Part shown: in pieces, positions 11,957 to 25,144 of the stretch
Position numbering within the stretch: position 1 is the stretch's first letter
How the letters are laid out: every line of letters begins with the position of its first letter
Assembly: GCF_001598795.1 (NCBI RefSeq)
Contig: NZ_BCZP01000009.1
Coordinates: 120,001-152,000, forward strand
DNA length: 32,000 bases
Source of the DNA: Delftia acidovorans NBRC 14950
Lineage (GTDB): Bacteria; Pseudomonadota; Gammaproteobacteria; Burkholderiales; Burkholderiaceae_C
Direction of reading: 5' to 3'
Made by a program: the position numbers and the translations under genes
Notes under the pieces: model-generated
What the model was told of the DNA's origin: nothing
The model's database searches: none
Seen by the model: only the letters and a program-made list of their open reading frames with translations

Positions 11957-12066
11957 AGCCACCTCTGCTTCTGGGTTGAGGTCCACGGCGGCGCAAGGCA
12001 ACGGAAGCTGCTGCCCCGGGAGGGCAGGAGGGCATTGCGTGCGCGTGGACTGGGAAACGGCGAGTC

Positions 12067-12136
12067 GCTATTGGAAATAGCTATCGAAAATACTTCTGCA
12101 CAAATGATTGTGACCAAGAAATATTCAATCGAATAT
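12067..12136. promoter_or_regulatory. AT-rich leader of the aspT-asdA operon with two palindromes (GCTATTggaAATAGC at 12067-12081; ATATTCaatcGAATAT at 12121-12136)
   Basis: Both dyads were read directly from the sequence. They lie 65-180 nt upstream of the aspT start in clearly AT-richer DNA. Function is unknown (operator or promoter elements). Confidence 0.25.
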
Positions 12137-12322
12137 GGCTATTTCATTGGCTTCTTTGGGTCAATCCTTGTTGAGAACAGAGCCACTATTCACGACAAAG
12201 ACCAACGGCAATGTAGGACTGCGCCGTCAGCAAAAGCGGATACATATACAGAATTCCTTGCATGCAGGCCCTGGGCGCCAGTTTTCGAATTAAACCTATT
12301 GGCAGCGAGATGAATTCATCAA

Positions 12323-12706
12323 TTACGCATCTCGCGCCCAGATGAGGTGGAGTTCTCCATCCACAAAACCGGCGCTCACCGCTTGCGACTGGCGCAGCCG
12401 AAGGGCTCCTGCCGCTTCCGAGGCCACGTAGGAGCCAAGCAGCTTCCTGGCAGCAGCAAGCCCTTTCTCCCACTCGCTTCCCACGACGTCATGCGGCAAC
12501 TCGAAGTGAGGATCGTCGGACATGAATATGTCATCGCACGCCCAGTCCGGGTCCTGCGGGTCGTAGGTCGGGCAGCCCACAATCTGGAGCTCGTGCGATG
12601 TGGGCGAGTCATACAGATTGAAGTGGAATGCCGCGATTCCTTCTGGCAGATCGCCGGACAGTGTTTCGTCAACCCATTGGGAGAATTGCTTTTCAATTGC
12701 TTTCAT
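12323..12706 (-). CDS. small acidic cytoplasmic hypothetical protein (immunity-protein-like)
   Basis: The track ORF starts at a TTG (12727). ATG 12706 gives MKAIEKQFSQWVDETLSGDLPEGIAAFHFNLYDSPTSHELQIVGCPTYDPQDPDWACDDIF.. (127 aa). There is no signal peptide or TM segment, and the sequence is rich in Asp/Glu/Trp. It has protein-like composition and intermediate GC. The immunity function is inferred from size, composition and neighbourhood only. Confidence 0.5.
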   Translation of the reverse strand: MKAIEKQFSQWVDETLSGDLPEGIAAFHFNLYDSPTSHELQIVGCPTYDPQDPDWACDDIFMSDDPHFELPHDVVGSEWEKGLAAARKLLGSYVASEAAGALRLRQSQAVSAGFVDGELHLIWARDA

Positions 12707-12789
12707 GGTTTCAATATTCTGATGCAATGTGGATCAAAAAATCTTTCCATCATATAGGGAAGTCTGAAAAAATAATTGATTCGCATGCT

Positions 12790-13165
12790 TCAAAAAATAT
12801 CCGGCTCCGGCACAGCCCTCCCAAAGCCCGTCTCCAGAAAATCAAAATCGCATCCCTCATCGGCCTGCAGGATATGGCGGCCGAACAGCCAGCCGTAGCC
12901 GCGCTGGTAGCGCGCGGGCGGGGGCGTCCATGCGGCGCGGCGCATGAGCTTTCGCGTGGTCGAGCGCCTGCGCACATCCCGTGGCGCGTGACCCGACCGG
13001 GGCCGCAGCGCGCAGGAACTGGACACCGACCTGATGCTCTTCGAGCAGCGCTACCCCACGCTCGGTCCAGCGGCCCAGCATGAGTTGCTGGTACAGGCCA
13101 TGTCACCGGGCCTGCACTGGACGCCCCTGGGCCTGCGCGCCACCCGCCTGTTCCTGGGCCGGTAG
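12790..13165. other. GC-rich patch of apparent gene relics inside AT-richer DNA
   Basis: Minus frame: MRRAAWTPPPARYQRGYGWLFGRHILQADEGCDFDFLETGFGRAVPEPDIF (12947->12790). Plus frame: MSFRVVERLRTSRGA-TGA(12989-12991)-PDRGRSAQELDTDLMLFEQRYPTLGPAAQHELLVQAMSPGLHWTPLGLRATRLFLGR, with stop at 13163-13165. Neither is a convincing intact gene. Confidence 0.3.
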
Positions 13166-13206
13166 GCCATTCGACCCTCTTTACCTACCCGGGAAAAATC
13201 ATCTGG

Positions 13207-13698
13207 TCATTGGGCAAGACGGGCTTGCTCTTTGACCCATTCCCGGCTTTTGCCACGCACGCACCAATCTGGATTCTTAACCCAGTCCGTAAAATATATG
13301 GTGGGGTGGTCTTTCAAAACGTTGCAGCGGGTATAGCCCATTTTTGGCATAGCATAGTACTGATAAGGCGTAATTGCAAAAAGACAAAAAAACATAATAA
13401 AAACTCCTGCGGCTATGGCGGATAAAAAAATACGCGTTGGAATTTTTATGGCGTCCTCCATGCAAGGGATTGCTTTTTGTATTGCAATGATAATTCCTGT
13501 GATTGAAATTATTGGCACACACAACGCAATTGGATCAAATGGTGTGATTCTTACTGATGGAGCGAGTTTATTTAAATCATCTACGGTTTGATATAGAGAA
13601 TATAAAATACTCCAAATTGACATTGCTAGAAGCAGCAGAAAAAGTGGAATATTCCAGATTAGTGATTTTCTGATTTCGGTTAAATTTCTTTTGTCCAT
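13207..13698 (-). CDS. small integral membrane protein, paralog 1 (3 predicted TM helices plus a Cys-containing C-terminal tail; DUF1240-like; candidate immunity protein)
   Basis: 163 aa. TM-like stretches are IWNIPLFLLLLAMSIWSILYSL, PIALCVPIISITGIIIAIQ and IFLSAIAAGVFIMFFCLFAITP. The tail is QYYAMPKMGYTRCNVLKDHPTIYFTDWVKNPDWCVRGKSREWVKEQARL. It is clearly paralogous to 14021..14530. The DUF1240 resemblance (Y..C...[DN]P...YV..C tail) is from memory only. Confidence 0.75.
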   Translation of the reverse strand: MDKRNLTEIRKSLIWNIPLFLLLLAMSIWSILYSLYQTVDDLNKLAPSVRITPFDPIALCVPIISITGIIIAIQKAIPCMEDAIKIPTRIFLSAIAAGVFIMFFCLFAITPYQYYAMPKMGYTRCNVLKDHPTIYFTDWVKNPDWCVRGKSREWVKEQARLAQ

Positions 13699-14020
13699 TT
13701 AAAGACTCATAAATTTTTGCGACTGATCAGGCATGGTCGGTTATTAGGAAATAATTTTTTTATTTCCCGGTGTTTATAGATTCTATTTAAATCTATCCCG
13801 GTAGGGGTGCCATTAAGGCCATGGCTGGGCGTTTCGGGTCCAGTACCCGCTTCATTCGACCGCTATTCGCTGCCGCCACCGCTGCTAAGGACTGGGCCTA
13901 GTGTTTGCGCGGAAGCGTAGTGATTTCTGGGGAGCCAGCGAGGAGTTGTTCTGACACACATGCAACCACACTACGCGGATAGGTCAGAAAGATGTAGGCC
14001 TTGTGATCTGCACTTTTTGT

Positions 14021-14530
14021 TTATGGATTTAGCTTGGTGCTACCGCCTAGACGGGCTTGCTCATTAACCCACTCCCTGCTTTTGCCGCGTACGCACCAGT
14101 CAGGGTTTTTCACCCAGTCTGAAAAATAAATATTTGGATGGCCTTCTAATATATTGCAGCGTGTATATCCTAATCTGGGCATGGCGTAGTACTGAAGAGG
14201 TGTAACAACAAGAAGACAGAAGAGCATAATTCCTCCCCCTGTGATTACGGAGATCGCAAGAATGCGTTCTGAGATTTTTAAAGTTCCTGCTTTGCAGGGG
14301 ATTGCTTTTTGTATCACTGATACAAGTATCGTAGCTCCCATTATTGGGAAATATACCCCGACCAAATCACCAGGTGTGATTCTTACCGAGGGGGCTGAAT
14401 TTTTTAAATCGGCGATTGTTTTTAGAAATGAATTTTCTGTATTCCAAATTGAAAAAAATAAAACAAATAGAATTGATGGAATTCCATATATTAATGATTT
14501 TCTAATATCGGTTAAGTTGTTTGTTTTCAT
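14021..14530 (-). CDS. small integral membrane protein, paralog 2 (candidate immunity protein)
   Basis: The track ORF begins at TTG 14545. ATG 14530 gives MKTNNLTDIRKSL, which aligns with MDKRNLTEIRKSL of paralog 1. The tail QYYAMPRLGYTRCNILEGHPNIYFSDWVKNPDWCVRGKSREWVNEQARL is near-identical to that of paralog 1. It starts 11 nt after the stop of the upstream glycine-zipper gene. Confidence 0.75.
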   Translation of the reverse strand: MKTNNLTDIRKSLIYGIPSILFVLFFSIWNTENSFLKTIADLKNSAPSVRITPGDLVGVYFPIMGATILVSVIQKAIPCKAGTLKISERILAISVITGGGIMLFCLLVVTPLQYYAMPRLGYTRCNILEGHPNIYFSDWVKNPDWCVRGKSREWVNEQARLGGSTKLNP

Positions 14531-14541
14531 TTTTATATCCG

Positions 14542-15489
14542 TCAATTTTTCCTGTTGATAGGAAGTAGCAAGCTATTATTTGGTTCCGAAGACGCATAAT
14601 TGTATTTTATTCTTTCACTTTGGCCATTTAATTTTTTCTCAGTCACAGCATTGGGATTGATGCGATATATCCCATGGGGAGTACTGTCTGTTTGCATTTT
14701 TAATGCGAAAATCACATTCTTCTTTATATCCCAAGTCTCGTCAATTCTATTCAAAGCTATCCCAGACAAGAACACTGCGACAGCCATTGTGACTAACGGC
14801 AAGATGGCAAGAGTTGCTGCACCTACGCCCACCACTAATCCTGCTCCAAGGCCCACCATCGTCGCCAACCCAGCCTTGACCGCCTCCACTCCAATCCCTC
14901 CCACCAGGTCATGCATGGTCTTCTCGTCGTTGAAGATGAAGTCCAATGTCTCCACGCCGATACCCACAACCAAGCTCAAGATGAAGCCCCCTCTGGCCAC
15001 GCCCTGAAGGCCGCGCATGCCCAGACCCATCTGGACCATGCGGGGATTGGTGGTGAGAAAGCGCGTGCCCTGCAGCAGATTGCCGCGAAACCCGGCTCGG
15101 CCCGTGATGATGATATAGGTGCCTTTGGGCGTCGCCTTGACATAGGTGCGCGCACCGGCAAGGCGCAATGCAATCAGCGTTCTGGTGAACAGGTACGCGT
15201 CATTGGCCAGCATGGAGGCGGGGATGGTCCAGGGTTTGCCGGCATTGGGGCTGGCCGTCTGCGTCCAGTACCGGCCCAGGGCGCTTTGGGCCAGGATGGC
15301 GCGCAGGCTGGCCTCCAGGCGCGGGTCATTGCGCGACCTGTCTTGCAGGACGCCTAGGAACTCTTGCGGCGTGAGTACCACCACGTCCACCTGCTGGCTG
15401 TCCATGGCGCGGGTGATCTGCCTGTTGAAGGCCTTTTCATAGCTGATATACGGGCGGGTGAGATCTGTGGATGTTGCCATGGCCTGCAA
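14542..15489 (-). CDS. glycine-zipper-rich membrane-inserting protein (candidate membrane-disrupting toxin/effector)
   Basis: 315 aa. A soluble N-terminal part of about 150 aa is followed by Gly-rich hydrophobic segments GLGMRGLQGVARGGFILSLVVGIGVETL and LVGGIGVEAVKAGLATMVGLGAGLVVGVGAATLAILPLVTMAVAVFLSGIAL (repeated GxxxG/A), then a polar low-GC-encoded tail. It is followed by two small membrane-protein paralogs. Confidence 0.7.
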   Translation of the reverse strand: MQAMATSTDLTRPYISYEKAFNRQITRAMDSQQVDVVVLTPQEFLGVLQDRSRNDPRLEASLRAILAQSALGRYWTQTASPNAGKPWTIPASMLANDAYLFTRTLIALRLAGARTYVKATPKGTYIIITGRAGFRGNLLQGTRFLTTNPRMVQMGLGMRGLQGVARGGFILSLVVGIGVETLDFIFNDEKTMHDLVGGIGVEAVKAGLATMVGLGAGLVVGVGAATLAILPLVTMAVAVFLSGIALNRIDETWDIKKNVIFALKMQTDSTPHGIYRINPNAVTEKKLNGQSERIKYNYASSEPNNSLLLPINRKN

Positions 15490-15626
15490 GCGAATGGTTA
15501 ATGGAATGAATAAGGAAATGGTGGTTTGCCAAATGCCAGAAAAATCACAAACGCAGGCCTCCCATCAGGCCTGCGGCAAATCAGGTCCGATCAAGGTATG
15601 AGTGTGGGAATTACGCGTTCACAATC

Positions 15627-15662
15627 ATTCCCAAGGCCAATGTCAATCAATGGCCTGGGAAT
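15627..15662. repeat. long imperfect stem-loop ATTCCCAAGGCCA-(11 nt)-TGGCCTGGGAAT, with a third GGGAAT copy at 15606-15611
   Basis: Read directly from the sequence: 12 bp of pairing with one bulged A. The upstream GGGAAT could pair alternatively with ATTCCC. It lies in ORF-free DNA about 140-175 nt upstream of the glycine-zipper gene start. No U-tract on either strand. Confidence 0.4.
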
Positions 15663-16066
15663 TCCGTTGTGGGAGTCCGGCTATTTGATTTCTTGGGTAT
15701 CTGGAAGTCAAGCAGAAAGGCTTGTGGCTGATTATTTTCAGATTATTCCTAGATGCATATATGAGATGCACGCCTTGAGTGCAGTCGATATGGACTTGGA
15801 ATGAGGAAGAGGGCGGTGACAAGGCTTTGCCAGTCAATACAGCCATTTGCCCCAGTGGACGCAGGCCATCCGACACCGCCGTGCTGCGGGCCTTTGCGGC
15901 CACAGGCACGGCGCCGTGGCGATACGGTCGTGAAGACCAGGTACAAGGAAACCGCGCGCAGCGGGCTGGCGGTCCATATCATCGAGTGCTGCGCGGGCCT
16001 GGCGGCGCAGCACCAACGGCAACGGCAAGCCGCCATCATCCAGCCCGGTCACAACCTCGTATATCC

Positions 16067-16465
16067 ATGACAGCCAGTGAAAGATTGAAGGCCTGGGCAC
16101 GACGCATCAAGCGCGATGGCGTCACCCTGTGGTTTGCCTGCAAGAGCCCGCAGACGCCCTGGTATGCCAAGGCCTTGGGCGCCTTCGTGGTCGCCTACGC
16201 CCTGAGCCCCATCGACCTGATCCCCGACTTTATCCCCGTGCTGGGCTATGTGGATGACGTCCTGCTGCTGCCCGCGCTGATCTGGCTCACCGTGCGGCTG
16301 CTTCCCCCGGCCGTGTTGGCCGACAGCCGCCAGCAGGCCGAGGCCTGGATGCAGGCCCAAGGCCGCAAGCCCCGAAGCCGTGCCGGAGTCGCTCTGGTGG
16401 TGGGCGTCTGGCTATGTGTTTGCGTGGGGGTCTTCTTTGCGTTCCGAGAGCGCTGGGGGCTTTGA
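16067..16465 (+). CDS. DUF1232 (YkvA-like) membrane protein
   Basis: This is the C-terminal 132 aa of track ORF 15779..16465, from ATG 16067: MTASERLKAWARRIKRDGVTLWFACKSPQTPWYAKALGAFVVAYALSPIDLIPDFIPVLGYVDDVLLLPALIWL. The SPIDLIPDFIPVLGYVDD motif is characteristic of DUF1232. The 96 codons upstream are Arg/Gly/Pro-rich and not protein-like. Confidence 0.7.
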   Translation: MTASERLKAWARRIKRDGVTLWFACKSPQTPWYAKALGAFVVAYALSPIDLIPDFIPVLGYVDDVLLLPALIWLTVRLLPPAVLADSRQQAEAWMQAQGRKPRSRAGVALVVGVWLCVCVGVFFAFRERWGL

Positions 16466-16624
16466 GCGCGGAGCCTTGCCGGGCTGAGCGGCGGCGGGCG
16501 GGCAACACAAGGATGCGGGAGCTGCGCCTGAGCGCTGTATCATCTCGCCCAGGTGCTGAACACACCTTCACAGGCGGTCCCGCCACACTCCCGAAAGCAG
16601 TTGGACGTACTCACAGGAGGCCTC

Positions 16625-16741
16625 ATGGCTGCTTTCCTTGCGGGCGTATCAATGCCCGAACCCTCTCCCAATACTTTGCGTGGTCCCGTGCTTCGAGCAC
16701 TTGGGCATTCCTTTGCGTCAGCCGCCAAGCGTGCTCATTGA
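16625..16741 (+). CDS. possible 38-aa ORF
   Basis: AGGAGG at 16615-16620, then ATG 16625 (a short 4-nt spacer). Product MAAFLAGVSMPEPSPNTLRGPVLRALGHSFASAAKRAH. Its stop lies inside the SD of the next ORF. There is no homology support. Confidence 0.2.
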   Translation: MAAFLAGVSMPEPSPNTLRGPVLRALGHSFASAAKRAH

Positions 16742-16750
16742 GGAGTTGCC

Positions 16751-16969
16751 ATGCTGTACTTTCAACTTTCCGAGCCCGAGTACAACTGCCTGCGGCGCGT
16801 GCAGGATCAGTTGGGGCTGATTTCCAGTTTGATCATTGGCGCCTATCCAGGGCATGCCTTGGAGCCGGTGACTCCTGGGCAATTGCTTGCGTTTATTCAG
16901 GCGCAGGAAGAGGCGCTTGAGGGGGTGATGGGGGGAGTTAGTGAGCGCGGGGTGGTGCGGGGGGAATAA
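16751..16969 (+). CDS. 72-aa hypothetical protein
   Basis: GAGGAG at 16740-16745 with a 5-nt spacer to ATG 16751. Protein-like sequence MLYFQLSEPEYNCLRRVQDQLGLISSLIIGAYPGHALEPVTPGQLLAFIQAQEEALEGV. It is followed by a good intrinsic terminator at 17006-17034. Confidence 0.45.
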   Translation: MLYFQLSEPEYNCLRRVQDQLGLISSLIIGAYPGHALEPVTPGQLLAFIQAQEEALEGVMGGVSERGVVRGE

Positions 16970-17005
16970 TAGCGGATGACTAGAAAATCTGGTGAAAACA
17001 CTATG

Positions 17006-17034
17006 CAGGCAAGAGTGATTTTGCCTGTATTTTT
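17006..17034 (+). terminator. Rho-independent terminator
   Basis: CAGGCAA-gagtgatt-TTGCCTG followed by TATTTTT, 37 nt downstream of the 16969 stop. It coincides with the left edge of the AT-rich cassette. Confidence 0.55.
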
Positions 17035-17186
17035 GAATTTTGCTGCTCAAGAGCTTTCCCTTAGAAAAACTATCAAGCTATTTTGATTATAAAATCAGCC
17101 ATGAAAACTGATTATTATTAATAATGCTGGTGTCTCTGTGCAATAGTGGGATGGTGCTAATAATTAGTGTTAGGAAAGAAGTCTGG

Positions 17187-17861
17187 CTAGAAAAGTAGAC
17201 CTTGATCTTTTTTTCTGTCAAAATTTTGAGGGGGAATGCCATATAGCTCACTCATTCCATTGCGAAAATCATTGATTCCCCCATAGCTTGGATGACGAAT
17301 GGTGATAACTTCTAGCCCAAATCTTCTTGCATATTGCGATGCATCTTGGCCGATTGCAACTATGCGACGAATCTTGAGCCAACTAATCAATATTTCGTTT
17401 AGCTCTTCAACTAGTAGAAGCTCTCGGACTGTAAATTTTCGATTAGAGAATGGATTATCCGGCTCGTGTGGATGAAATGGGAAAACATTCCATAAAAGTG
17501 GTGGTAGCGCTAGGGAGCGAAGTACGGACCAAATTTCTGATGCAGTTCGTTCAGAGATAGCGGGGCCCAGCGTAGCTCGTTTAAAATTGGTTCCTGGGTA
17601 GCGCTGAGTCATTTCAGGTAAATGAAATTCATCCGTTAGTGCTATGCCAGTGCGGCGGCCTCCGCGGTAACCAAGGTCTCTACCCATCCAAATAGTATCT
17701 ATACCGATAGTTAGCGCTGCTTTTAGATATCCTTGTAGATTGCGACGGCGAGCGGATGCTGCGTCCGGGCGATCGTTAACAGCACAGATGTCCGAATAGG
17801 GATTAAAAACGTTATCCAGCTTCACTTGGGATAGCGCGTTCACGAAGTCGTTAGGAGTCAT
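17187..17861 (-). CDS. uracil-DNA glycosylase superfamily protein (divergent UDG fold)
   Basis: 224 aa. It has a motif-A-like GRDLGYRGGRRTGIALTDE, a central LLWNVFPFHPHE, and a motif-B-like VITIRHPSYGG (the HPS signature). The N-terminal NPYSDICAVND..RRRNLQGYL resembles family-4/5-like UDGs. The ATG overlaps the upstream stop as ATGA (17858-17861). Confidence 0.7.
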   Translation of the reverse strand: MTPNDFVNALSQVKLDNVFNPYSDICAVNDRPDAASARRRNLQGYLKAALTIGIDTIWMGRDLGYRGGRRTGIALTDEFHLPEMTQRYPGTNFKRATLGPAISERTASEIWSVLRSLALPPLLWNVFPFHPHEPDNPFSNRKFTVRELLLVEELNEILISWLKIRRIVAIGQDASQYARRFGLEVITIRHPSYGGINDFRNGMSELYGIPPQNFDRKKDQGLLF

Positions 17862-19072
17862 GGCGAACAGTCCCTGTCAGGAGCTGTGAAGGTTATGGCA
17901 TGCTGTAGAACGTCCACGGTCACAATGCCCCCGCGGTGCTCCTGTAGCTTGCGAAAAATCTTAAATCCTTCAATTATAGCTTGCTCCCACTGCCAAAGTT
18001 GACATTTTTCTACTTCGTAGCCTTTTACCATGCTGCTAATCTGTTTGAGCAAGCCGTAGTCTAAACCCCTAGTCTGATCATCGGTATAAAAGTTTTTTTC
18101 TTTGGCATGATTAAAAATCCAAGTAGCAATACCTTCCTCAATAATCGCTGCACGGGCTCCATCTTCATTCTCATCTATTCGAGGATCGGACTTTCGTTTT
18201 CTTTTTAATAGTCCGCGAAGAACTGGCGACCATCCGAGAAATGCCAAATATGCGAGATGGAAAACATCGTGAAAACGATAGTCATCAGGCTCATTGCTAT
18301 TGTCAGTTAGGCGGTCACCTATAAAAACTTCATTAAGGCTTTGAACGACGTGCCCGTTCTCTCGTGTGCCTCGTTCGATGAAGTTTATTTCTATTTTTGC
18401 AGGAAAGCGTTCGTGTTCAGCGAATCCTTCATCAAACGGCAGTGGATATGTTTTTTGCTCGCCAGGCCACCGGCTATGGATCTTTATAAGATTACTTCGA
18501 GCTACATCTTCTAATTTTAAATCGAAGCTGGCACAGCATATGGCAATTTCTGATAGGTGTTTTCCTATATCCTCCGCGCAATTTAGATTGGCCATGCTTT
18601 GATATTCAGTCAATCTCCTGTTAGCCATAGATCCTGCGTGATATGCAAGGATGCCTAGTTGGTGAGATCGATCAAGCGATTCAGGAGTGCGGCGGATCTC
18701 AAGTAGACTATCTATATGTCGAAAGGTTACGGGTTTGACCGCGTCTTGTAAGGACTCATGGTTTCTATTTCGCAAAGTCTTGATGCATTGTTCGCCGACA
18801 TGATCTATGTCTATTTGTAAAAAAATTGCGATATTTATTAGATACCAAAGTGCATCCCCCAGTTCTTCTCCAGCTAACTCTGCTTCTGTAGAGGCTATCT
18901 TGTCTCGTCCAATCTTTTTGATGGCAGCGAGAAGCCCACCAATCTCACCAAAATAGCCAAATATGATTTTTCGGAAACCGTCATCATTCTGTTGAAACTG
19001 ATTCGTTGAGAAAGCCTTTGCCTTGTAATCGGCAATCGATAGCGGGGCGGGTTGAGGTGAAAGCTTAAGCAT
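17858..19072 (-). CDS. MazG-like all-alpha NTP pyrophosphohydrolase domain protein (N-terminal MazG repeat, second degenerate repeat, unassigned C-terminal domain)
   Basis: 404 aa. FRKIIFGYFGEIGGLLAAIKKIGRDK...AELAGEELGDALWYLINIAIFLQIDIDHV fits the MazG E-x-x-E / E-E-x-x-D helix pair. A second repeat, LGILAYHAGSMANRRL...AEDIGKHLSEIAICCASFDLKLEDVARSNLIKIHSRWP, follows. The C-terminal ~190 aa (DDYRFHDVFHLAYLAFLGWSPVLRGLL..EDGARAAIIEEGIATWIF) is unassigned. Confidence 0.7.
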   Translation of the reverse strand: MLKLSPQPAPLSIADYKAKAFSTNQFQQNDDGFRKIIFGYFGEIGGLLAAIKKIGRDKIASTEAELAGEELGDALWYLINIAIFLQIDIDHVGEQCIKTLRNRNHESLQDAVKPVTFRHIDSLLEIRRTPESLDRSHQLGILAYHAGSMANRRLTEYQSMANLNCAEDIGKHLSEIAICCASFDLKLEDVARSNLIKIHSRWPGEQKTYPLPFDEGFAEHERFPAKIEINFIERGTRENGHVVQSLNEVFIGDRLTDNSNEPDDYRFHDVFHLAYLAFLGWSPVLRGLLKRKRKSDPRIDENEDGARAAIIEEGIATWIFNHAKEKNFYTDDQTRGLDYGLLKQISSMVKGYEVEKCQLWQWEQAIIEGFKIFRKLQEHRGGIVTVDVLQHAITFTAPDRDCSP

Positions 19073-19124
19073 AAAGAAGAATATCTTTCAAGAAAGTTTC
19101 TATATTTCTGTGCTGGCTATCTGC

Positions 19125-19165
19125 TGTTTATATTATAGCTTTTGACTCTGCTTTTTAGAATAAAA
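19125..19165 (-). promoter_or_regulatory. candidate internal promoter for the MazG-like/UDG-like gene pair
   Basis: There is a perfect TATAAT on the minus strand (19137-19132) in the 136-nt AT-rich spacer, about 60 nt upstream of ATG 19072. The -35 at a 17-nt spacing is weak (TTCTAA). Confidence 0.25.
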
Positions 19166-19208
19166 ATCGAGATTTGCTATTCTGGTTTTGTCATATTTAG
19201 CAAGATAG

Positions 19209-19823
19209 TTACCAACATTTAGGGCGGCCGCGATTTCCTCTTTCTGGTAATTTTGTGAACCAGTCAACTACTTCATCTATAAATGCATTTGAATAATTTG
19301 ACCTATAATTTCGACCATTTGGATATAAATCTTCCTGATTGAATTGCCTAAGATGAATTGGTATCATAGGTGCATTGTCACCCCAGTATATAAAGTCATT
19401 ACTTATTAAAACATTTTTAGACCCAAGATCTCGATCGAAATTCAATTGATTTACTACACCACCTTCGTAACTGTGGTGAGAATCTTCTTGGAGCCATTGC
19501 CCTTCGTAGAAATGATAGATATTGTCGCCATAAGCAGCAGATTTGCTTGAATCAAAGCTCGCTTTTTTGGCCGAAAATCTGGGGTCATCCCAGTATTGTT
19601 GAAAATTCAGCTTCTCAGTTACGCGCATGGCAAAGATCATTCTTTCTTGAAGATTGATGGCTTTGCTGCCGCAGCCGACTACAATATCTCCAACCTGAGC
19701 ACCTTCTCTAATTTGTGGTTTACACGTTGCAAGTGTGCAAACTCCATGGAATGGGTTGGGGGCAAAACCGTAGTCCCTTGATAGCTTGTACGAAAAAATT
19801 CTTGGCCGGCTCTTCATTGGCAT
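19209..19823 (-). CDS. Nmad2-like (nucleotide-modification-associated domain 2) protein
   Basis: 204 aa (or 202 aa from the second ATG at 19817, which forms ATGA with the upstream stop). The N-terminal RIFSYKLSRDYGFAPNPFHGVCTLATCKPQIREGAQVGDIVVGCGS is the signature I associate with Nmad2-family proteins. That family assignment is from memory and has not been searched. Confidence 0.6.
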   Translation of the reverse strand: MPMKSRPRIFSYKLSRDYGFAPNPFHGVCTLATCKPQIREGAQVGDIVVGCGSKAINLQERMIFAMRVTEKLNFQQYWDDPRFSAKKASFDSSKSAAYGDNIYHFYEGQWLQEDSHHSYEGGVVNQLNFDRDLGSKNVLISNDFIYWGDNAPMIPIHLRQFNQEDLYPNGRNYRSNYSNAFIDEVVDWFTKLPERGNRGRPKCW

Positions 19824-20269
19824 TTGATCCTGGGAATTTTACGTCCTGAAGTTGAGTCTTTGGGCGATTCCCATACTTCCTCGCAGTTAAGCGCTCTGGG
19901 TAATTGTGGGCTGCCGACACCCACGACTGCAGTGGATATCTCGTCGAAGATTTGGGGAAGGGAGTTTGTACTTTCTACAACGGCAATAATCTTTGTTCCT
20001 AGTGCTCCTGCATGTTTGGCTGCACTCGTTAAGCTTTCGGGGGATTTTTTAGGAATCAAAAAAATGCAAACTTCTGCATTCTCAATGCACTCTTTTATCT
20101 CGGTATTCACTTTGCTGAGATTCCCTGCTTGCGCCGCCTCTGCTGCATCTTGATCTGCAATTGAAACGCAGACCTCAAATCCATTTTCACTGAGATGCTC
20201 AACTATTTTTGGTAAATCTTCCTCAAAATCACTGGTGTATACTATGCAGGCTTTTTTTTGCATGGACAT
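19814..20269 (-). CDS. TIR-like / DUF1863-like (or nucleoside 2-deoxyribosyltransferase-like) Rossmannoid domain protein
   Basis: 151 aa. The beta-alpha pattern is KACIVYTSDFEEDLPKIVEHLSENGFEVCVSI ... EIKECIENAEVCIFLIPKKSPESLTSAAKHAGALGTKIIAVV. It is the first gene of the AT-rich operon and has no obvious SD. Confidence 0.5.
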   Translation of the reverse strand: MSMQKKACIVYTSDFEEDLPKIVEHLSENGFEVCVSIADQDAAEAAQAGNLSKVNTEIKECIENAEVCIFLIPKKSPESLTSAAKHAGALGTKIIAVVESTNSLPQIFDEISTAVVGVGSPQLPRALNCEEVWESPKDSTSGRKIPRIKCQ

Positions 20270-20506
20270 ATTTGGTTTGTTTAAATAATGTTAAGAAGCT
20301 TTATTTTTTGAAATACAAGTTCGCTAAATATTTTGAATATTTGAATTTATATGCAACCCCTATATTTAATAGTTAATCGATGCAATCTCATATAATATAT
20401 TAAGTATGAGCGTAATAGTGGATATTTAATTCTCCTAATAAAAGATATTTCACATCAGGCGCACTTTTTCTCATAGAGAACCTGTCGTTCTCCAATCGGA
20501 ACATAT
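20270..20506 (-). promoter_or_regulatory. very AT-rich upstream region of the four-gene operon (promoter presumed; contains TTGAAT direct repeats and a CTCATA/TATGAG dyad)
   Basis: This is 237 nt of ORF-free AT-rich DNA. TTGAATATTTGAATTT occurs around 20333-20348, and CTCATAtaatatattaagTATGAG around 20387-20410. I could not pin a convincing -35/-10 pair. Confidence 0.3.
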
Positions 20507-20929
20507 TCATAACCCCATAAGGCCTGCCGCCGGCTCTTTGACGCTTTTGCCGCGCTTGCCTAATCCCCCGCCGACCAGCGTTTCAAACTCTCGCCATGAC
20601 ATGTTGTTCAGCGCATCCGCGCTGGAGCTAGCCGAGATGGTTTCGAACAACCGGCTTCGGCGGCGCTGGCGCACGGCGGAAATGGCCGCGCCGGCCAAGC
20701 AGATGATGGGCAGGATGTATTGGCCTGCAGTGGCCAGGCCTTGCCAGATGGCTGTTGTGGCCAATTGGTCGATTTGCTGCGGGCTTTGTGCTGCAGGCAG
20801 GGGACGGATGGCAGTGGAGTGCAGCACCATGTAGCAGGCAATTGCCAATGCAGTGCCGGCCCACCAGGGGAGCGTGGCGATCAGATCCATGAGGTCTTCC
20901 GCCGTGCTGGACTTGCTTTTTCTTGCCAC
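20507..20929 (-). pseudogene. 5' fragment of a membrane-anchored Mrr-type restriction endonuclease gene, truncated before the nuclease domain
   Basis: MARKSKSSTAEDLMDLIATLPWWAGTALAIACYMVLH...YILPIICLAGAAISAVRQRRR...ADALNNMSWREFETLVG matches the N-terminal two-TM module plus the MSWREFE.LVG entry into the Mrr_cat domain of a common ~300-aa family. Here the ORF stops about 20 aa later, exactly where the GC content collapses (about 20507-20515). Confidence 0.6.
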
Positions 20930-21419
20930 TCCTGCCCCTCCCTTGCTTCAAGTTGCAAAACATTTTGCGACATTTGAGGGCTAAATGCATTCCTGAGTCA
21001 ATGGGTGCGGTGAAATGCATAGAAATTGACAATGACGATTTTTTCTGAAATGGCAGTCAATTCTTGCTATTTGCTATTGATTGAGTAGCGGGCAATGCAA
21101 GCCTGGCCTATGCAATTGCGGAGGCTTGCCGTTTGAGGCAATGGCGTGACCGTGCTCATTGCCGTGAGTCGCGCAGGGGACAGGATCCTTGGGGTGTGAG
21201 ATAGCAATCCGGCTGCTGTCCTTATCCCCAGTGCTGTATGAATTTGTGTCACTTGTTTGGGGGACATACAGGGCCATGGCGGCTGCCTAGCATTCGGTCG
21301 ACTGGAGCGCAAAAGAAGGACGGGCGATGACTGCGGTGCGGTCATTTCTTCAACGCCGCCGCTTGTTTGCACACCGATTCGAGGCCGAATCCGGCCTTTC
21401 ACCATCAGGAGCCTTCGCC

Positions 21420-22658
21420 ATGTCCGACTCTGCAAATTCAACGAATGCCTTCACTCCGTCTGCCGATATCTACAAGGGAATCTCCGTTCTCAGTTCAGAG
21501 GACTGGATCGGACTGACGACGTTCTTCGAGTCTGCAGTCACCGACAACCCGACCACTACGGAGCTGATGCGCGCCATGCTGGGCATGCAGAAGCAGGATG
21601 CTTTCAGGCCGGAGTTTTCCGAAGCGGTGGAGCTGTTCGTCACGCTCAAGGGTGTCGGCCAGAAGTTCAAGGCCGATGTACAGGACAAGATGCTGACCCT
21701 TGCCGACGATATCGTTCAGTACAACGATGTGGCGGCAACCACCTATGAGCGGTTGATCGAGCTGGTGGACCGTTTTGATCTGGAGGGAGCGCCCACCCCA
21801 TCGGCGGAGCCGGCAGTGGAAGCGAAATGGAAGGCCCTGGTCAAGGTTTGGGAAAGCGATACGCCCAGCGGGCGTTCGGAGCAGATCAAGCGCAATTTCA
21901 GCAGCGCGCTGGAGCAGTTGATTGAAGACGCCAATGCGCGCTCGGTGCGTGCCTTCGCGCTGCAGAACTCCATTCTTGACAACGGCAACGGAATACTGGT
22001 GCGCCTGAATGCCTGCAAGACCGCATTCAATGGACAAAAGCAGAAGTTCACGACCACTCTGGGCGCCGAGGGTGCTGCCAACCAGAAGCTGAAGGCCGCC
22101 GTGGAGAAGCTGGAGAACGACTTGAAGGCCCTGCGCCGCAAGGAAAAGGATGAAGTCATCGTGCTGTCCACGTCTCCGGCCTATCTGGCGATTCCGCTTT
22201 TCGGGCCGCTGATTCTGGCGGGGGTGGATATCGGCGTGGGTGCGGACCTTGCGGTCACGCGAAGGAAGATTGCCGAGAAGGTGGATGAGGTGAGAACCAT
22301 CCAGGCCACGATGGCTACGAACGAGCGATTCATCGGCTACTACAACCGAAGCAATGATCGCTTTGACAGCATCAGCAAGAGCATTGAAGACCTGGGTCCC
22401 AAGCTCAAGACGCTGGGCGAGGCATGGCGTGCGATTTCTGCCGATCTGGGCAACATACACAAGGTCTTGAGCACCACCGGCCGCAAGTCCCTGCAAGGGG
22501 AAAACTGGTTCAGCGTGACGGTGGTGCTGGGCACGGCCAAGAAGGGCTGGGCGCGTGTCGCCGGACACGCAGACCATTTCCGCCGTTTCGGCGGCACGCC
22601 GAAGAAGGCGCAGAGCGTGGACCAACTGGTGGAGCTTGCCAGCAAGAAGGCAGCCTGA
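21420..22658 (+). CDS. ClyA-superfamily-like alpha-helical pore-forming toxin component (XaxA/YaxA / Hbl-Nhe / Ahl-Mak-like architecture)
   Basis: Track ORF 21327..22658. I prefer ATG 21420 (AGGAG at 21407-21411, 8-nt spacer), giving 412 aa. The protein has long charged heptad-like helices (NQKLKAAVEKLENDLKALRRKEKDE; TRRKIAEKVDEVRTIQATMATNERF) flanking one ~35-residue hydrophobic segment, VIVLSTSPAYLAIPLFGPLILAGVDIGVGADLAV. No signal peptide. Confidence 0.5.
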   Translation: MSDSANSTNAFTPSADIYKGISVLSSEDWIGLTTFFESAVTDNPTTTELMRAMLGMQKQDAFRPEFSEAVELFVTLKGVGQKFKADVQDKMLTLADDIVQYNDVAATTYERLIELVDRFDLEGAPTPSAEPAVEAKWKALVKVWESDTPSGRSEQIKRNFSSALEQLIEDANARSVRAFALQNSILDNGNGILVRLNACKTAFNGQKQKFTTTLGAEGAANQKLKAAVEKLENDLKALRRKEKDEVIVLSTSPAYLAIPLFGPLILAGVDIGVGADLAVTRRKIAEKVDEVRTIQATMATNERFIGYYNRSNDRFDSISKSIEDLGPKLKTLGEAWRAISADLGNIHKVLSTTGRKSLQGENWFSVTVVLGTAKKGWARVAGHADHFRRFGGTPKKAQSVDQLVELASKKAA

Positions 22659-22723
22659 GCGGCCTGCTCCGGCCTTTGTCTAATCGCTGCACAGGTGCAG
22701 TGCCTTACCTGGAACCACCCGCC

Positions 22724-25144
22724 ATGACTTCAGCAATGACTCCCCTTGAATTGCGAACCCTGATCGATCGCTACCGAGCCGAGGGCCTGGTGCCGCCAGG
22801 GCCGCTGGTCTGCAGCGGTGGCCGCGCGCCGGACGGCAGCTTCAATCCCTTCGGCATCGTGGCCGATCTGGTGGTGGACCTGAAGGTGTCGCTGGACGAG
22901 GCCGACGCGGCCGGCCTGCAGGCGCTGGACATCCATGCCGATACCGTGGTGGTGCCCGAGGGGTTCGATAGGCGGCTTGACGGCTCGGTGCGGCGGCTGA
23001 CGGTGGTTGCCCGCCGCATTGTTTCCGAAGGCACGACGGTGTTGCGCATGCTGCATGACGAGGACAACGAGCTCAGCAGGGTGCGCATTTTCGTGGAAGC
23101 CGTGGAGGGCCGGTTCACGCTGTACGGCGGCCCCACGCGCGACACCCCTTATGCGTTGGAGGCGGTCTGGGACACGGTGACGCGGCCGCAGTTCAGCAAT
23201 TTCCTGTGGCAGGACAACCGGGCTGTGGTGAAGCACACCCCCGTGCCACCCGGCCTGTTGGAGCATGGCGAGCCGATGCACAGGGTGCTGGCCGCGCTGT
23301 TTGCCCTGAGCGCCGGCATGGCGGGCAGGCCCGGCCACAGCGAGGCTGAGCTGGCGTTGTGCCATGAGGCGCTGGCCTGGATCACGCGCTGGTCAGGGGT
23401 CGAGTCCGGGTTTGGCGAGTTGATCCAGGCGGCGGGTTCGCTGCAGCGTCTGCTGCCTGTCATGGGCGTTGACGGGTTGGCCAGGCCGATTCCTGATCTG
23501 AGCGCCGGCAGCTATCTGTCGCTGGCCAAGGCCCGGCAGGAGGTGATGGCGGCCATGGAGGCACACCTGCGCAGCCTGCGCGCCAGCGGCGAGCTGGCAG
23601 GTGCCGTGGGCAGCGTCGCGCAGGCGTTTGCAGACCGGGACACCTTGGACCTCAAGACGCTGGAGGCACGTTGCACCGAGCTGGAGCAGCGGTTGATTCA
23701 GCAGATCGAGGCCCTTGACCGCGCCGCACGCACGGTGCGCCAGGAGGAGCTTGAAGCGGAACTTGCCGCCATGCGGCTCAAGCTTGAAAGCGACGTTGCC
23801 CAGATCGTGCGCACAGTGAAGATGAGCCTGGAAATCGCCTTTGGCGTCATTGCGGTCGCGGGCAGCGTGGCGGCCCTGTGCGTGGGCGTGCCGCCCGACC
23901 CGAAGGCGTTGACCGAGACCGGTCAGAAAGGCGTGCTCGGCCTGAAGGATTTGTACGGGCAGGCCAAGACGCTTGGCGGCAGCATAGACGGCCCGCTCAA
24001 GGCGCTGAAGGCCCTGGGCCAGTCGTTTGCCATTCCGCTGCAATGGGCCAGGCACAACTCCAGCACGCTCAAGAATCTGGTGGATCCCGCCAAGGGCGCA
24101 TTGAATGCGGTGCTGCCGGTGATCCGTGGGCCGCTGGGCGGGCTGGATGTCGAGGGGATTTCCCGGGAGCTGGGCGACACCATGCGTGCACTTGCGCTCA
24201 TGCCGGATGCCAATGAAGCCAAGGCCGCCTGGACGGTGCTGGAGAACGATGCAGTCAACCGGCTGGATCTGGTGCTTGCCACGGAAGGCACCGAGGCTGC
24301 CGTGCGCAACGCCGCCAACACCCTCAAGACACAGGTGCAGAAGGTGGCCATCTATGGCCGCCTGCTGGCAGAGCAAAGCGCATCCAAGAATGCCATTGCC
24401 CGTGAGCTTGCCACGCTCAAGCTGGAGTACGTTGCGGTGATCGGCAAGCGCAAGCGCCTGCAGGCGCTGGAGCAGCAGGCGCTGACAGAGCTGGAGCGCA
24501 GCGCGCGGCTGCAGGGGGAAATCACCCTCAGGGCAGAAAGTGCGCGCCGCGGCTTCTACGTGGACTGCTTCGGGGTCCGCGCCGCACAGGCCTACGAGAC
24601 AGGCAAGCAGCCTGGTCACCGTCTTTCGATGCCGGGCACGGCCGCTGCCATGGCAGATGCACACGCCACCCTGCTGGCAGACCACGCCAGCGCGCAGGCC
24701 GCCAATGCGAGGACCCAAGGGGATCTGCGGCGGGAATTGCGGGTCACTGACGCCGCGCTGCTGCAGCAGCTGGCGCATGGGCAGCCCATCAGCCTGTCCA
24801 TTGCCACCAGCCATCCGGCACTGGCCAGCTACCGCCGCATCCGCCTTTCGTCGGTGCAGGCCTGGCTGGAGTTTGCCGATGTCTCGGCCCAGCGCATCAA
24901 TGTCGACATGGTGACTGGCCGCGACTTTCACGACAGCACGGGCAACGGGGACGAGAGGCTTTTCTGCTCGCCCCTGAAGATCAACTTCACCTACGCCGGC
25001 GACCAGATCGAGTTCTCGCAGCATCTGGGAGACGTCTGCCCGACGCCGTTCACGACCTGGCTGATCGAAGTGCTGGAGCCCCGACAGATGCCGGCAGCGC
25101 CTCGGGCCCTGCGCCTGTTGATGGCCGGCACTGCAGCCAAATGA
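22724..25144 (+). CDS. large (806 aa) coiled-coil protein with a single central hydrophobic helix; putative second toxin component
   Basis: Track ORF 22424..25144. The first ATG downstream of the upstream gene's stop codon is 22724 (weak SD, so the start is uncertain). Coiled-coil stretches (LEARCTELEQRLIQQIEALDRAARTVRQEELEAELAAMRLKLESD; KRKRLQALEQQALTELERSARLQGE) flank IAFGVIAVAGSVAALCVGV. The N- and C-terminal domains are unassigned. Confidence 0.5.
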   Translation: MTSAMTPLELRTLIDRYRAEGLVPPGPLVCSGGRAPDGSFNPFGIVADLVVDLKVSLDEADAAGLQALDIHADTVVVPEGFDRRLDGSVRRLTVVARRIVSEGTTVLRMLHDEDNELSRVRIFVEAVEGRFTLYGGPTRDTPYALEAVWDTVTRPQFSNFLWQDNRAVVKHTPVPPGLLEHGEPMHRVLAALFALSAGMAGRPGHSEAELALCHEALAWITRWSGVESGFGELIQAAGSLQRLLPVMGVDGLARPIPDLSAGSYLSLAKARQEVMAAMEAHLRSLRASGELAGAVGSVAQAFADRDTLDLKTLEARCTELEQRLIQQIEALDRAARTVRQEELEAELAAMRLKLESDVAQIVRTVKMSLEIAFGVIAVAGSVAALCVGVPPDPKALTETGQKGVLGLKDLYGQAKTLGGSIDGPLKALKALGQSFAIPLQWARHNSSTLKNLVDPAKGALNAVLPVIRGPLGGLDVEGISRELGDTMRALALMPDANEAKAAWTVLENDAVNRLDLVLATEGTEAAVRNAANTLKTQVQKVAIYGRLLAEQSASKNAIARELATLKLEYVAVIGKRKRLQALEQQALTELERSARLQGEITLRAESARRGFYVDCFGVRAAQAYETGKQPGHRLSMPGTAAAMADAHATLLADHASAQAANARTQGDLRRELRVTDAALLQQLAHGQPISLSIATSHPALASYRRIRLSSVQAWLEFADVSAQRINVDMVTGRDFHDSTGNGDERLFCSPLKINFTYAGDQIEFSQHLGDVCPTPFTTWLIEVLEPRQMPAAPRALRLLMAGTAAK

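Follow-up and report, generated by a model that had tools for sequence, protein, structure and literature searches.

We find that a 32,000-nucleotide stretch of the Delftia acidovorans NBRC 14950 genome (contig NZ_BCZP01000009.1, positions 120,001 to 152,000; "the window" below means this whole stretch) carries an intact, horizontally acquired and widely conserved cassette of four genes, A to D, whose products are a degenerate TIR-like protein, an Nmad2 protein, a MazG/MazG_C protein and a glycosylase-like member of the uracil-DNA glycosylase (UDG) superfamily. It is built from two parts, a MazG/MazG_C-UDG core and a portable TIR-Nmad2 module, the second of which ties the cassette to DS-4 ('NTTI'), an E. 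coli defence system validated in the DefensePredictor study (Science 2026, PMC13092281). Our reading, offered tentatively, is that the two modules make up an anti-phage cassette acting on non-canonical pyrimidine nucleotides and DNA of the 5-hydroxymethyl-deoxyuridine (5-hmdU) type. The Delftia acidovorans origin is reflected in the product of gene D, for which that species has a protein of 100% identity. The features of the locus are as follows.

20269-19814, minus strand: gene A, 151 aa, degenerate TIR-like protein (ThsB-related), first gene of the TIR-Nmad2 module
19823-19209, minus strand: gene B, 204 aa, Nmad2 family
19072-17858, minus strand: gene C, 404 aa, MazG core plus MazG_C
18761-18958, minus strand: MazG core of gene C, residues ~39-104
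17882-18439, minus strand: MazG_C domain of gene C, residues 212-397
17861-17187, minus strand: gene D, 224 aa, UDG-superfamily glycosylase-like protein, closest structure SMUG1
19208-19073, minus strand: spacer between genes B and C, 136 nt, AT-rich
20270-20506, minus strand: AT-rich upstream region, presumed cassette promoter; 35% G+C in 20001-20500

Gene D encodes a predicted glycosylase of the UDG superfamily

Sequence searches with the gene D product found no match in Pfam (including UDG, PF03167), NCBIfam or the sequences of the Protein Data Bank (PDB) at E-values up to 1-10, and none in PADLOC or PHROGs; the PADLOC-DB release used (2023) predates Brig1 and Brig2. The family numbers 5,549 homologues and carries the NCBI name 'uracil-DNA glycosylase'. 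When the AlphaFold2 (AF2) model of the protein (pLDDT 87, pTM 0.85) was compared with the PDB using Foldseek, the top 15 matches were all SMUG1 (E 2e-7, TM ~0.6), followed by family 4 UDG, UdgX and UNG, and almost all of the top 50 were UDGs. This agrees with the UDG fold that a first-pass annotation, made from the letters of the window, had assigned to the protein.

Predicted secondary structure places an invariant G60-R-D62-L-G-Y directly after strand 1 (residues 56-60) and an invariant H190-P-S-Y-G-G after the last strand (184-188), which in the model are the places where the UDG topology has its motifs A and B; a further strand (122-125) ends with L-L-W-N125. Profile searches gave no match between D and the SMUG1 chains in the PDB, and the motifs GRDLGY and HPSYGG differ from those of SMUG1. 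On the strength of the model, gene D is best described as a distinct family of the UDG superfamily, predicted to be a glycosylase, and not as a SMUG1 orthologue.

A MazG/MazG_C protein is coupled to gene D

The product of gene C combines a MazG-type core, predicted to be an NTP pyrophosphohydrolase, with a MazG_C domain. With 23.4 bits (E 7e-5) it barely exceeds the cut-off of 22 for Pfam MazG (PF03819), and it also matches PHROG 229, 'MazG-like pyrophosphatase' (E 7e-34). MazG_C (PF18722) is matched at E 6e-79 (264.5 bits against a cut-off of 29.7) over profile positions 5-188 of 190. The ~190-aa C-terminal domain noticed in the first-pass annotation is thus real but not unassigned: by its sequence it is MazG_C, a named but uncharacterised domain, for which sequence and profile searches detected no relative in the PDB. 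At least 95% conservation across 70 homologues was observed for E43, E69, E70, D73, K52, K53, R56 and D57, and likewise for the MazG_C motifs YRFHDVFH and DENxDGARAxIIEEGIATW.

The same annotation had described the protein as a tandem MazG. The MazG assignment agrees with the marginal Pfam match, but the second repeat finds weak support in the middle segment (residues 116-205; E 0.003, probability 9%). The idea that MazG_C itself hides another MazG repeat was considered separately and rejected (hhalign probability 0.1%).

It is textbook knowledge that MazG-family enzymes hydrolyse canonical (deoxy)nucleoside triphosphates ((d)NTPs), and the MazG core of gene C is conserved. Both points would suit an abortive-infection system in which the TIR-like and Nmad2 proteins sense infection and MazG/MazG_C breaks down canonical dNTPs or NTPs, or uses a putative kinase domain to convert them, so that phage replication is starved as in the dGTPase and dCTP-deaminase defences and D is secondary. 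The foreign, mobile nature of the cassette would also fit, as would the activity of DS-4, which shares TIR-Nmad2, on unmodified lambda (PMC13092281). Such pool depletion leaves the near-obligate, translationally coupled UDG-fold partner unexplained, however; gene A lacks the TIR catalytic residue, which argues against signalling through NAD-derived messengers; and PADLOC gave no matches to known depletion systems. We consider this explanation unlikely.

Conserved gene order and mobility

Gene neighbourhoods were compared in a census anchored on D, which took one genome per species and covered 67 loci of beta- and gammaproteobacteria, classified using locally built hidden Markov models (HMMs); individual loci are referred to by L numbers. 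D was directly preceded by MazG/MazG_C in ~63 of the 67 loci, so that homologues are syntenic and not scattered, as would be expected of the conserved neighbourhood that the first-pass annotation had proposed to look for. The order DUF4031-MazG/MazG_C-D was found in 40 loci, with ~7 further variants, and the order seen in the window, TIR/A-Nmad2-MazG/MazG_C-D, in eight. The TIR/A-Nmad2 pair, or Nmad2 alone, stood elsewhere or inverted in ~8 of the 67, including a recurrent MazG_C-TIR-Nmad2 unit, and in every locus where both were detected the TIR-like gene lay immediately 5' of Nmad2. The four-gene order is also present in several Pseudomonas contigs and, at deeper divergence, in viral-bin contigs. 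Because it recurs in 8/67 loci and in these contigs, the arrangement is far from chance. Compared with their orthologues, all four genes of the window co-diverge, with conservation falling in the order D > C > B > A. The proposal of a four-gene system therefore stands as regards conserved order but not as a single unit, since most relatives carry DUF4031 instead of TIR-Nmad2.

The DUF4031-type cassette is an element of ~8 genes, with a convergent block that is absent from the cassette of the window. The block encodes a ~276-aa protein, a C1 papain-like peptidase, an ImmA/IrrE M78 peptidase, an XRE regulator and a ~100-aa protein; 47-49 of the 67 loci have it, as do conjugative plasmids of alphaproteobacteria, often with a divergent helix-turn-helix gene (e.g. 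L054:5707-9600; plasmid loci L082 and L083). DUF4031 itself was compared with Nmad2, TIR and MazG, and a relationship to any of them was rejected. The 276-aa neighbour (L054:5707-6534, minus strand, and orthologues) has invariant PCLSHLSFK and YRSHxYxxRALGNLxGL motifs and no PDB or Pfam match. These motifs are in register with the thymidylate synthase (TS) homologue of DS-4; the resemblance had no statistical support (hhalign probability 1%, E 0.055).

Homologues of D were found on 44 plasmids, mostly adjoining a gene annotated as MazG-type or NTP pyrophosphohydrolase, and the MazG/MazG_C-UDG core pair is present on conjugative plasmids next to transfer genes. By comparison, 50,697 phage records contained no D homologue, and 2.9 million viral contigs contained almost none.

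The plasmid-borne core pair raises the question of DNA hygiene, that is, a non-immune role in which MazG/MazG_C and the UDG fold, as an analogue of dUTPase and uracil glycosylase, keep uracil or damaged bases from plasmids and islands. A dUTP pyrophosphatase and a UDG form the classical, textbook uracil-exclusion pair, the NCBI name of the D family points the same way, and no defence genes flank the Delftia cassette. Against this, the host already has standard repair enzymes; TIR-Nmad2, HMUDK_hel, XRE/ImmA-type regulators and proteases are atypical partners for housekeeping repair; the composition of the cassette is strongly foreign; and DefensePredictor scores the system as defensive (PMC13092281). 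Hygiene of mobile elements is, in our judgement, quite unlikely to be the function.

Partner exchange was seen in three loci. HMUDK_hel replaces MazG directly upstream of D in L071 (6840-7961, plus strand) and follows TIR-Nmad2 in L078 and L079. The viral-bin contig of L078 (7505-10595, plus strand) encodes ThsB_TIR, Nmad2, HMUDK_hel and a radical-SAM/SPASM protein beside an integrase. In Pseudomonas (L006-L008, e.g. L007:372-1988) the four-gene cassette adjoins a MazG-like (PF12643) gene and a NOV_C protein, inside an island with DUF927 primase-like and AlpA genes.

Nmad2 and its degenerate TIR partner

Gene B was recognised as Nmad2 in the first-pass annotation, and Pfam agrees: PF18753 is matched over profile positions 2-194 of 200 (E 7.9e-67), with 225 bits where the cut-off is 26.1. 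It has 3,972 homologues, the NCBI name 'putative nucleotide modification protein', and 46% identity to the Nmad2 of validated DS-4. PADLOC, NCBIfam and PHROGs returned nothing, and sequence and profile searches of the PDB found nothing significant. Invariant residues of Nmad2 include R16, D17, C34, K35, C51, S115, H116 and H117. The AF2 model (pLDDT 91) gave weak but consistent matches to ASCH, YTH, EVE/THYN1 and McrB-N among PDB structures (best E 8e-3) and to ASCH/DUF3850/EVE in a viral structure library (best E 8e-4). We tentatively suggest from the model that Nmad2 has a PUA-like fold, akin to modified-base readers or hydrolases.

According to Pfam, both Nmad2 ('nucleotide modification associated') and MazG_C owe their names to links with nucleotide-modification genes. 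This and the NCBI name of B invite the idea of a DNA- or nucleotide-modification pathway in which MazG handles a modified precursor, the UDG fold exchanges bases and Nmad2 modifies them, an idea also favoured by the HMUDK_hel and radical-SAM neighbours of the relatives and by the thymidylate-synthase and kinase homologues of DS-4. The cassette of the window, however, lacks any synthase, transferase or kinase of a known type, as well as a methyltransferase or restriction partner to police a mark, and phages, in which such pathways are concentrated, hardly ever carry the D family. Nor do we know of any UDG-fold base-exchange enzyme. A modification pathway seems to us improbable.

Sequence comparisons make gene A a degenerate relative of ThsB-type TIR proteins. 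In Pfam it scored 17 bits (E 0.009) with TIR_2, below the gathering score of 28, and did not match ThsB_TIR; only 3 of 48 family members reached TIR_2 at E<0.01, and sequence and profile searches of the PDB gave nothing significant. It does match PADLOC ThsB1 (E 7.8e-5, the sole PADLOC match) and the DS-4 TIR (hhalign probability 96.3%, E 2e-9), and homology to genuine TIR proteins was found by hmmsearch (E 3e-14). A is 26% identical over 151 aa (BLASTP E 5e-8) to the canonical partner in L045, and in L069 the equivalent position is occupied by a genuine ThsB_TIR (E 6.5e-24). The subfamily of A found in Delftia and Pseudomonas has lost both the FISH motif at the N-terminus and the WVxWEI helix that bears the catalytic Glu; in the alignment, WVxWEI of the canonical partners corresponds to xxxAAxxA, and no acidic residue is conserved among the 48 members. 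The assignment of A as TIR-like therefore survives as homology, although the Pfam cut-off is not reached. As the FISH motif and the catalytic Glu of WxxE are lost, an NADase or signal-generating activity, and with it a Thoeris-like role, appears unlikely.

A dead TIR could be imagined as a decoy. If MazG degraded an alarmone or an immune signalling nucleotide while the catalytically dead A shielded the element from host immunity, the cassette would be an anti-defence or regulatory module; the core pair travels on conjugative plasmids, and Atd1, a MazG-like protein from a phage, counters TIR-driven abortive infection through its hydrolysis of (p)ppGpp (10.1101/2022.06.09.495361). Yet phage records contain no D, the cassette stands at one fixed chromosomal site in many Delftia strains, and the UDG-fold partner has no place in this model, which we regard as very improbable.

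The A family comprises 62 clusters at 50% identity, with proteins of ~150 aa, as found by exhaustive HMMER search. A word-indexed search had returned only the query itself, having missed even homologues at 48% identity in Pseudomonas; the suggestion that A is an orphan was rejected as an artefact of that search, and 'no homologues' from such a search is an unreliable verdict for short, fast-evolving proteins. A second suggestion, that A is decaying in other Delftia strains, was also rejected: the gene is intact there, merely not called. On a complete Pseudomonas chromosome (L006:7545-8004, plus strand) the A-type gene is split by a frameshift within an otherwise intact four-gene cassette, and in the metagenomic copies L007 and L008 it is unbroken.

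Three cysteines are conserved in the A family, C8 and C61 among them, and so is a C-terminal R-x-K-C-Q. A conserved C-terminal Cys is common to degenerate and canonical TIR partners of Nmad2 (R-x-K-C-Q or R-Y-S/T-C; window tail 19817-19831). Since Nmad2 has the invariant residues C34, C51, H116 and H117, it is conceivable that A and B share a metal site, or that the tail of A inserts where the two proteins meet.

Proposed function

In the reading that we tentatively favour, the MazG/MazG_C enzyme would remove a non-canonical (deoxy)nucleoside triphosphate from the pool, and the SMUG1-like glycosylase D would excise the matching non-canonical pyrimidine from DNA, leaving abasic sites that would stop phage replication. 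The likeliest targets would be uracil derivatives of the 5-hydroxymethyl-dU type: thymidine-hypermodifying phages such as PhiW-14, M6 and YuA are expected to make 5-hmdUTP and to carry 5-hmdU transiently in replicating DNA. Nmad2 may bind or process the unusual base or nucleotide, as a sensor or specificity factor, and A, as a catalytically dead TIR derivative, may serve as its adaptor or regulator. What the analysis shows are the identities of the domains, the UDG fold, the modular synteny, the foreign composition and the tie of TIR-Nmad2 to a validated defence; the defensive function, the substrates, how the genes divide the work, and what Nmad2, A and MazG_C do are inferred.

Several lines of evidence point this way. 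The fold of D is closest to SMUG1, with an invariant Asp in the loop and the HPS motif kept, and the SMUG1 family removes U and 5-hmU. C and D are coupled through an ATGA overlap and adjacent in nearly all loci, and the acidic residues of MazG are conserved. The TIR-Nmad2 pair recurs in validated DS-4, HMUDK_hel swaps into the cassette, and the Nmad2 model resembles modified-base readers. D is nearly absent from phages, the cassette is foreign and its host species is also that of PhiW-14, a Delftia acidovorans phage that replaces T via a 5-hmdU intermediate; the DNA of the Pseudomonas phages M6 and YuA is likewise built via 5-hmdU (PMC8989533). Brig1 and Brig2, both of UDG fold, are proven anti-phage effectors on their own, and DefensePredictor independently scores the MazG/MazG-C/NMAD/UDG system as defensive (PMC13092281).

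Other observations weigh on the opposite side. No UDG sequence model recognises D, whose substrate the sequence does not reveal. The MazG metal-binding pattern is ExxE...ExxD, and the second Glu of ExxE is Gly46 in gene C. The fold assignment of Nmad2 is weak (TM 0.36-0.57, best E 8e-4), and neither PADLOC nor Pfam matched a known defence gene in the flanks of the Delftia cassette. The remaining points come from the DefensePredictor study (PMC13092281), which states that none of these domains has been validated. MazG_C is termed a 'predicted nucleotide kinase' there, and is for that reason a poor fit to a simple pool-sanitising role. The one DS-4 phenotype noted was a ~9-fold lower efficiency of plating of lambda, whose DNA is unmodified; it follows that a TIR-Nmad2 system does not necessarily rely on the phage DNA being modified. 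Finally, 'UDNG', a UDG-like candidate of a single, unrelated gene, was tested in the E. coli screen and was not given a DS name.

A more specific form of the favoured reading would have the cassette provide two-layer immunity specialised against thymidine-hypermodifying phages, as a natural Delftia acidovorans defence against PhiW-14-like phages. Nmad2 would then be a new PUA-like sensor or enzyme for 5-hmdU-type nucleotides, MazG/MazG_C would destroy or divert the non-canonical dNTP of the phage, D would represent a new UDG family that shreds replicating phage DNA while it transiently carries 5-hmdU, and the dead TIR would act non-enzymatically, as a scaffold. We hold this stronger version to be somewhat unlikely.

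Should the proposal be true, it would be the first pairing of a nucleotide-pool enzyme with a DNA glycosylase, hitting an unusual phage base both before and after incorporation. It would give a function to three widespread families: Nmad2 (~4,000 homologues), MazG_C and a UDG family (~5,500) missed by sequence models. Delftia acidovorans and PhiW-14 are a natural host-phage pair, which makes the idea directly testable, and modified bases could be mapped with the help of a glycosylase that specifically recognises 5-hmU-type or hypermodified thymidines. The modular picture, in which a MazG-UDG core is joined by TIR-Nmad2 or by DUF4031 and proteases, points to likely effector and likely sensor parts.

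Composition, expression signals and neighbouring genes

The four open reading frames (ORFs) are intact and lie on the minus strand between 20269 and 17187. The stop codon of A (19816-19814) overlaps an ATG of B at 19817 as ATGA, and B likely starts at this ATG; the stop of C overlaps the start of D in the same manner (17861-17858). For A, the NCBI annotation gives a 149-aa product starting at Met3. The 136-nt spacer between B and C contains a perfect TATAAT (19137-19132, minus strand). The four genes, both overlaps, the spacer and its TATAAT had been listed in the first-pass annotation and are present in the sequence, as are the four peptide motifs quoted there. The spacer may carry an internal promoter; a consensus -35/-10 scan found no -35 match to the TATAAT and called no promoter, nor did the consensus scan call anything in the upstream region (20270-20506). 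The spacer is specific to this lineage, the equivalent gap being at most 31 nt, or replaced by a gene overlap, in most TIR-Nmad2-MazG/MazG_C-D loci. Most starts had been said to lack a Shine-Dalgarno sequence; this is so for A and C, while B and D have a weak AGGA/GGGA. Rfam gave no match in 16800-20700.

The cassette has a G+C content of 42.8%, against 68.4% in the window outside the low-G+C stretch 12000-21500, and this strongly AT-rich composition marks it as foreign. The low G+C reported earlier is therefore correct, although the quoted range of 35-42% was slightly too narrow (35-50% in 500-nt windows within the cassette), and the conclusion that the cassette is a horizontally acquired, syntenic unit is supported by its composition and by the recurrent gene order. 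The island borders contain no tRNA gene and no flanking repeats. In many Delftia assemblies the locus recurs at this chromosomal site, its genes identical or nearly so.

Among the neighbours, a second AT-rich patch (40-45% G+C) consists of genes at 13207-13698, 14021-14545 and 14542-15489, all on the minus strand, in which two paralogous ~165-aa membrane proteins lie downstream of a 315-aa protein whose C-terminal half is hydrophobic. The layout resembles a toxin with immunity paralogues; Pfam and PADLOC gave no matches. At 20507-20929 (minus strand) lies a 140-aa ORF that begins with a membrane segment and whose last residues, ...MSWREFETLVG, look like the beginning of an Mrr-type nuclease domain; the ORF stops at the AT-rich edge of the cassette. 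Insertion of the cassette may have truncated this ORF; Pfam does not support the resemblance to Mrr. The 'truncated Mrr' and 'toxin/immunity' neighbours had been taken as a defence-island context, a reading that gained no support, as neither Pfam nor PADLOC gave defence matches. Three large adjacent genes (21327-26439, plus strand; 412, ~806-817 and 432 aa in public Delftia records) belong to no Pfam family and stand beside the cassette in all Delftia loci seen.

Comparison with known systems

In the literature searched, no experimentally characterised system with this gene combination was found. The earlier view that the combination is uncharacterised thus holds at the experimental level, but it has not gone unnoticed: DefensePredictor predicts a defence system with MazG, MazG-C, NMAD and UDG domains (PMC13092281, Fig. 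6F/S12B), sometimes inside defence islands. As far as the figure legend allows a match, the domains of genes B, C and D make up this same set; the accessible part of that study mentions neither a degenerate-TIR first gene nor the alternative DUF4031 architecture.

DS-4 ends with a TIR gene overlapping Nmad2, and its TIR is homologous to A at the profile level. The two systems differ in that DS-4 has thymidylate-synthase, dNMP-kinase and HMUDK_hel genes, which precede the pair, in place of the MazG/MazG_C and UDG genes of the cassette, and in that the DS-4 TIR keeps the catalytic Glu motif lost from A. A phmmer search of the window found none of the other three DS-4 proteins (TS homologue, dNMP kinase, HMUDK_hel).

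The overlap with Thoeris is confined to the first gene. A is related to ThsB TIR domains, and a genuine ThsB_TIR comes first in sister cassettes, but A has no catalytic Glu and its obligate partner is Nmad2 rather than a SIR2 or Macro-SLOG protein; PADLOC found no ThsA-type effector in the cassette or in nine flanking proteins.

SMUG1 is the best structural match of D, and the two have in common the overall topology and an HPS motif after the last strand. D is only 14-18% identical to SMUG1, and there is no HMM-level match. SMUG1, a family 3 UDG, has the motifs GMNPG, with the catalytic Asn, and HPSPRN; the catalytic loop of D, GRDLGY with Asp, is closer to the family 1 motif GQDPY than to GMNPG.

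Similar in strategy to what we propose for the cassette are two single-gene proteins of UDG fold, Brig1, which acts against phages with glucosyl-hydroxymethylcytosine (PMC11078745), and Brig2, which protects against the thymidine-hypermodified Pseudomonas phages M6, YuA and Ab18 (10.1101/2025.10.29.685425). Both excise modified pyrimidines for immunity using a UDG-superfamily fold, and both are AT-rich and mobile, as is the cassette. Judged by their descriptions, D is set apart from them: the best structural match of Brig1 is a family 4 UDG and that of D is SMUG1, and Brig1 and Brig2 act alone whereas D is coupled to MazG/MazG_C with further partners. The cassette is of a type already flagged computationally, and represents a candidate variant of glycosylase-based defence and of the TIR-Nmad2 systems.

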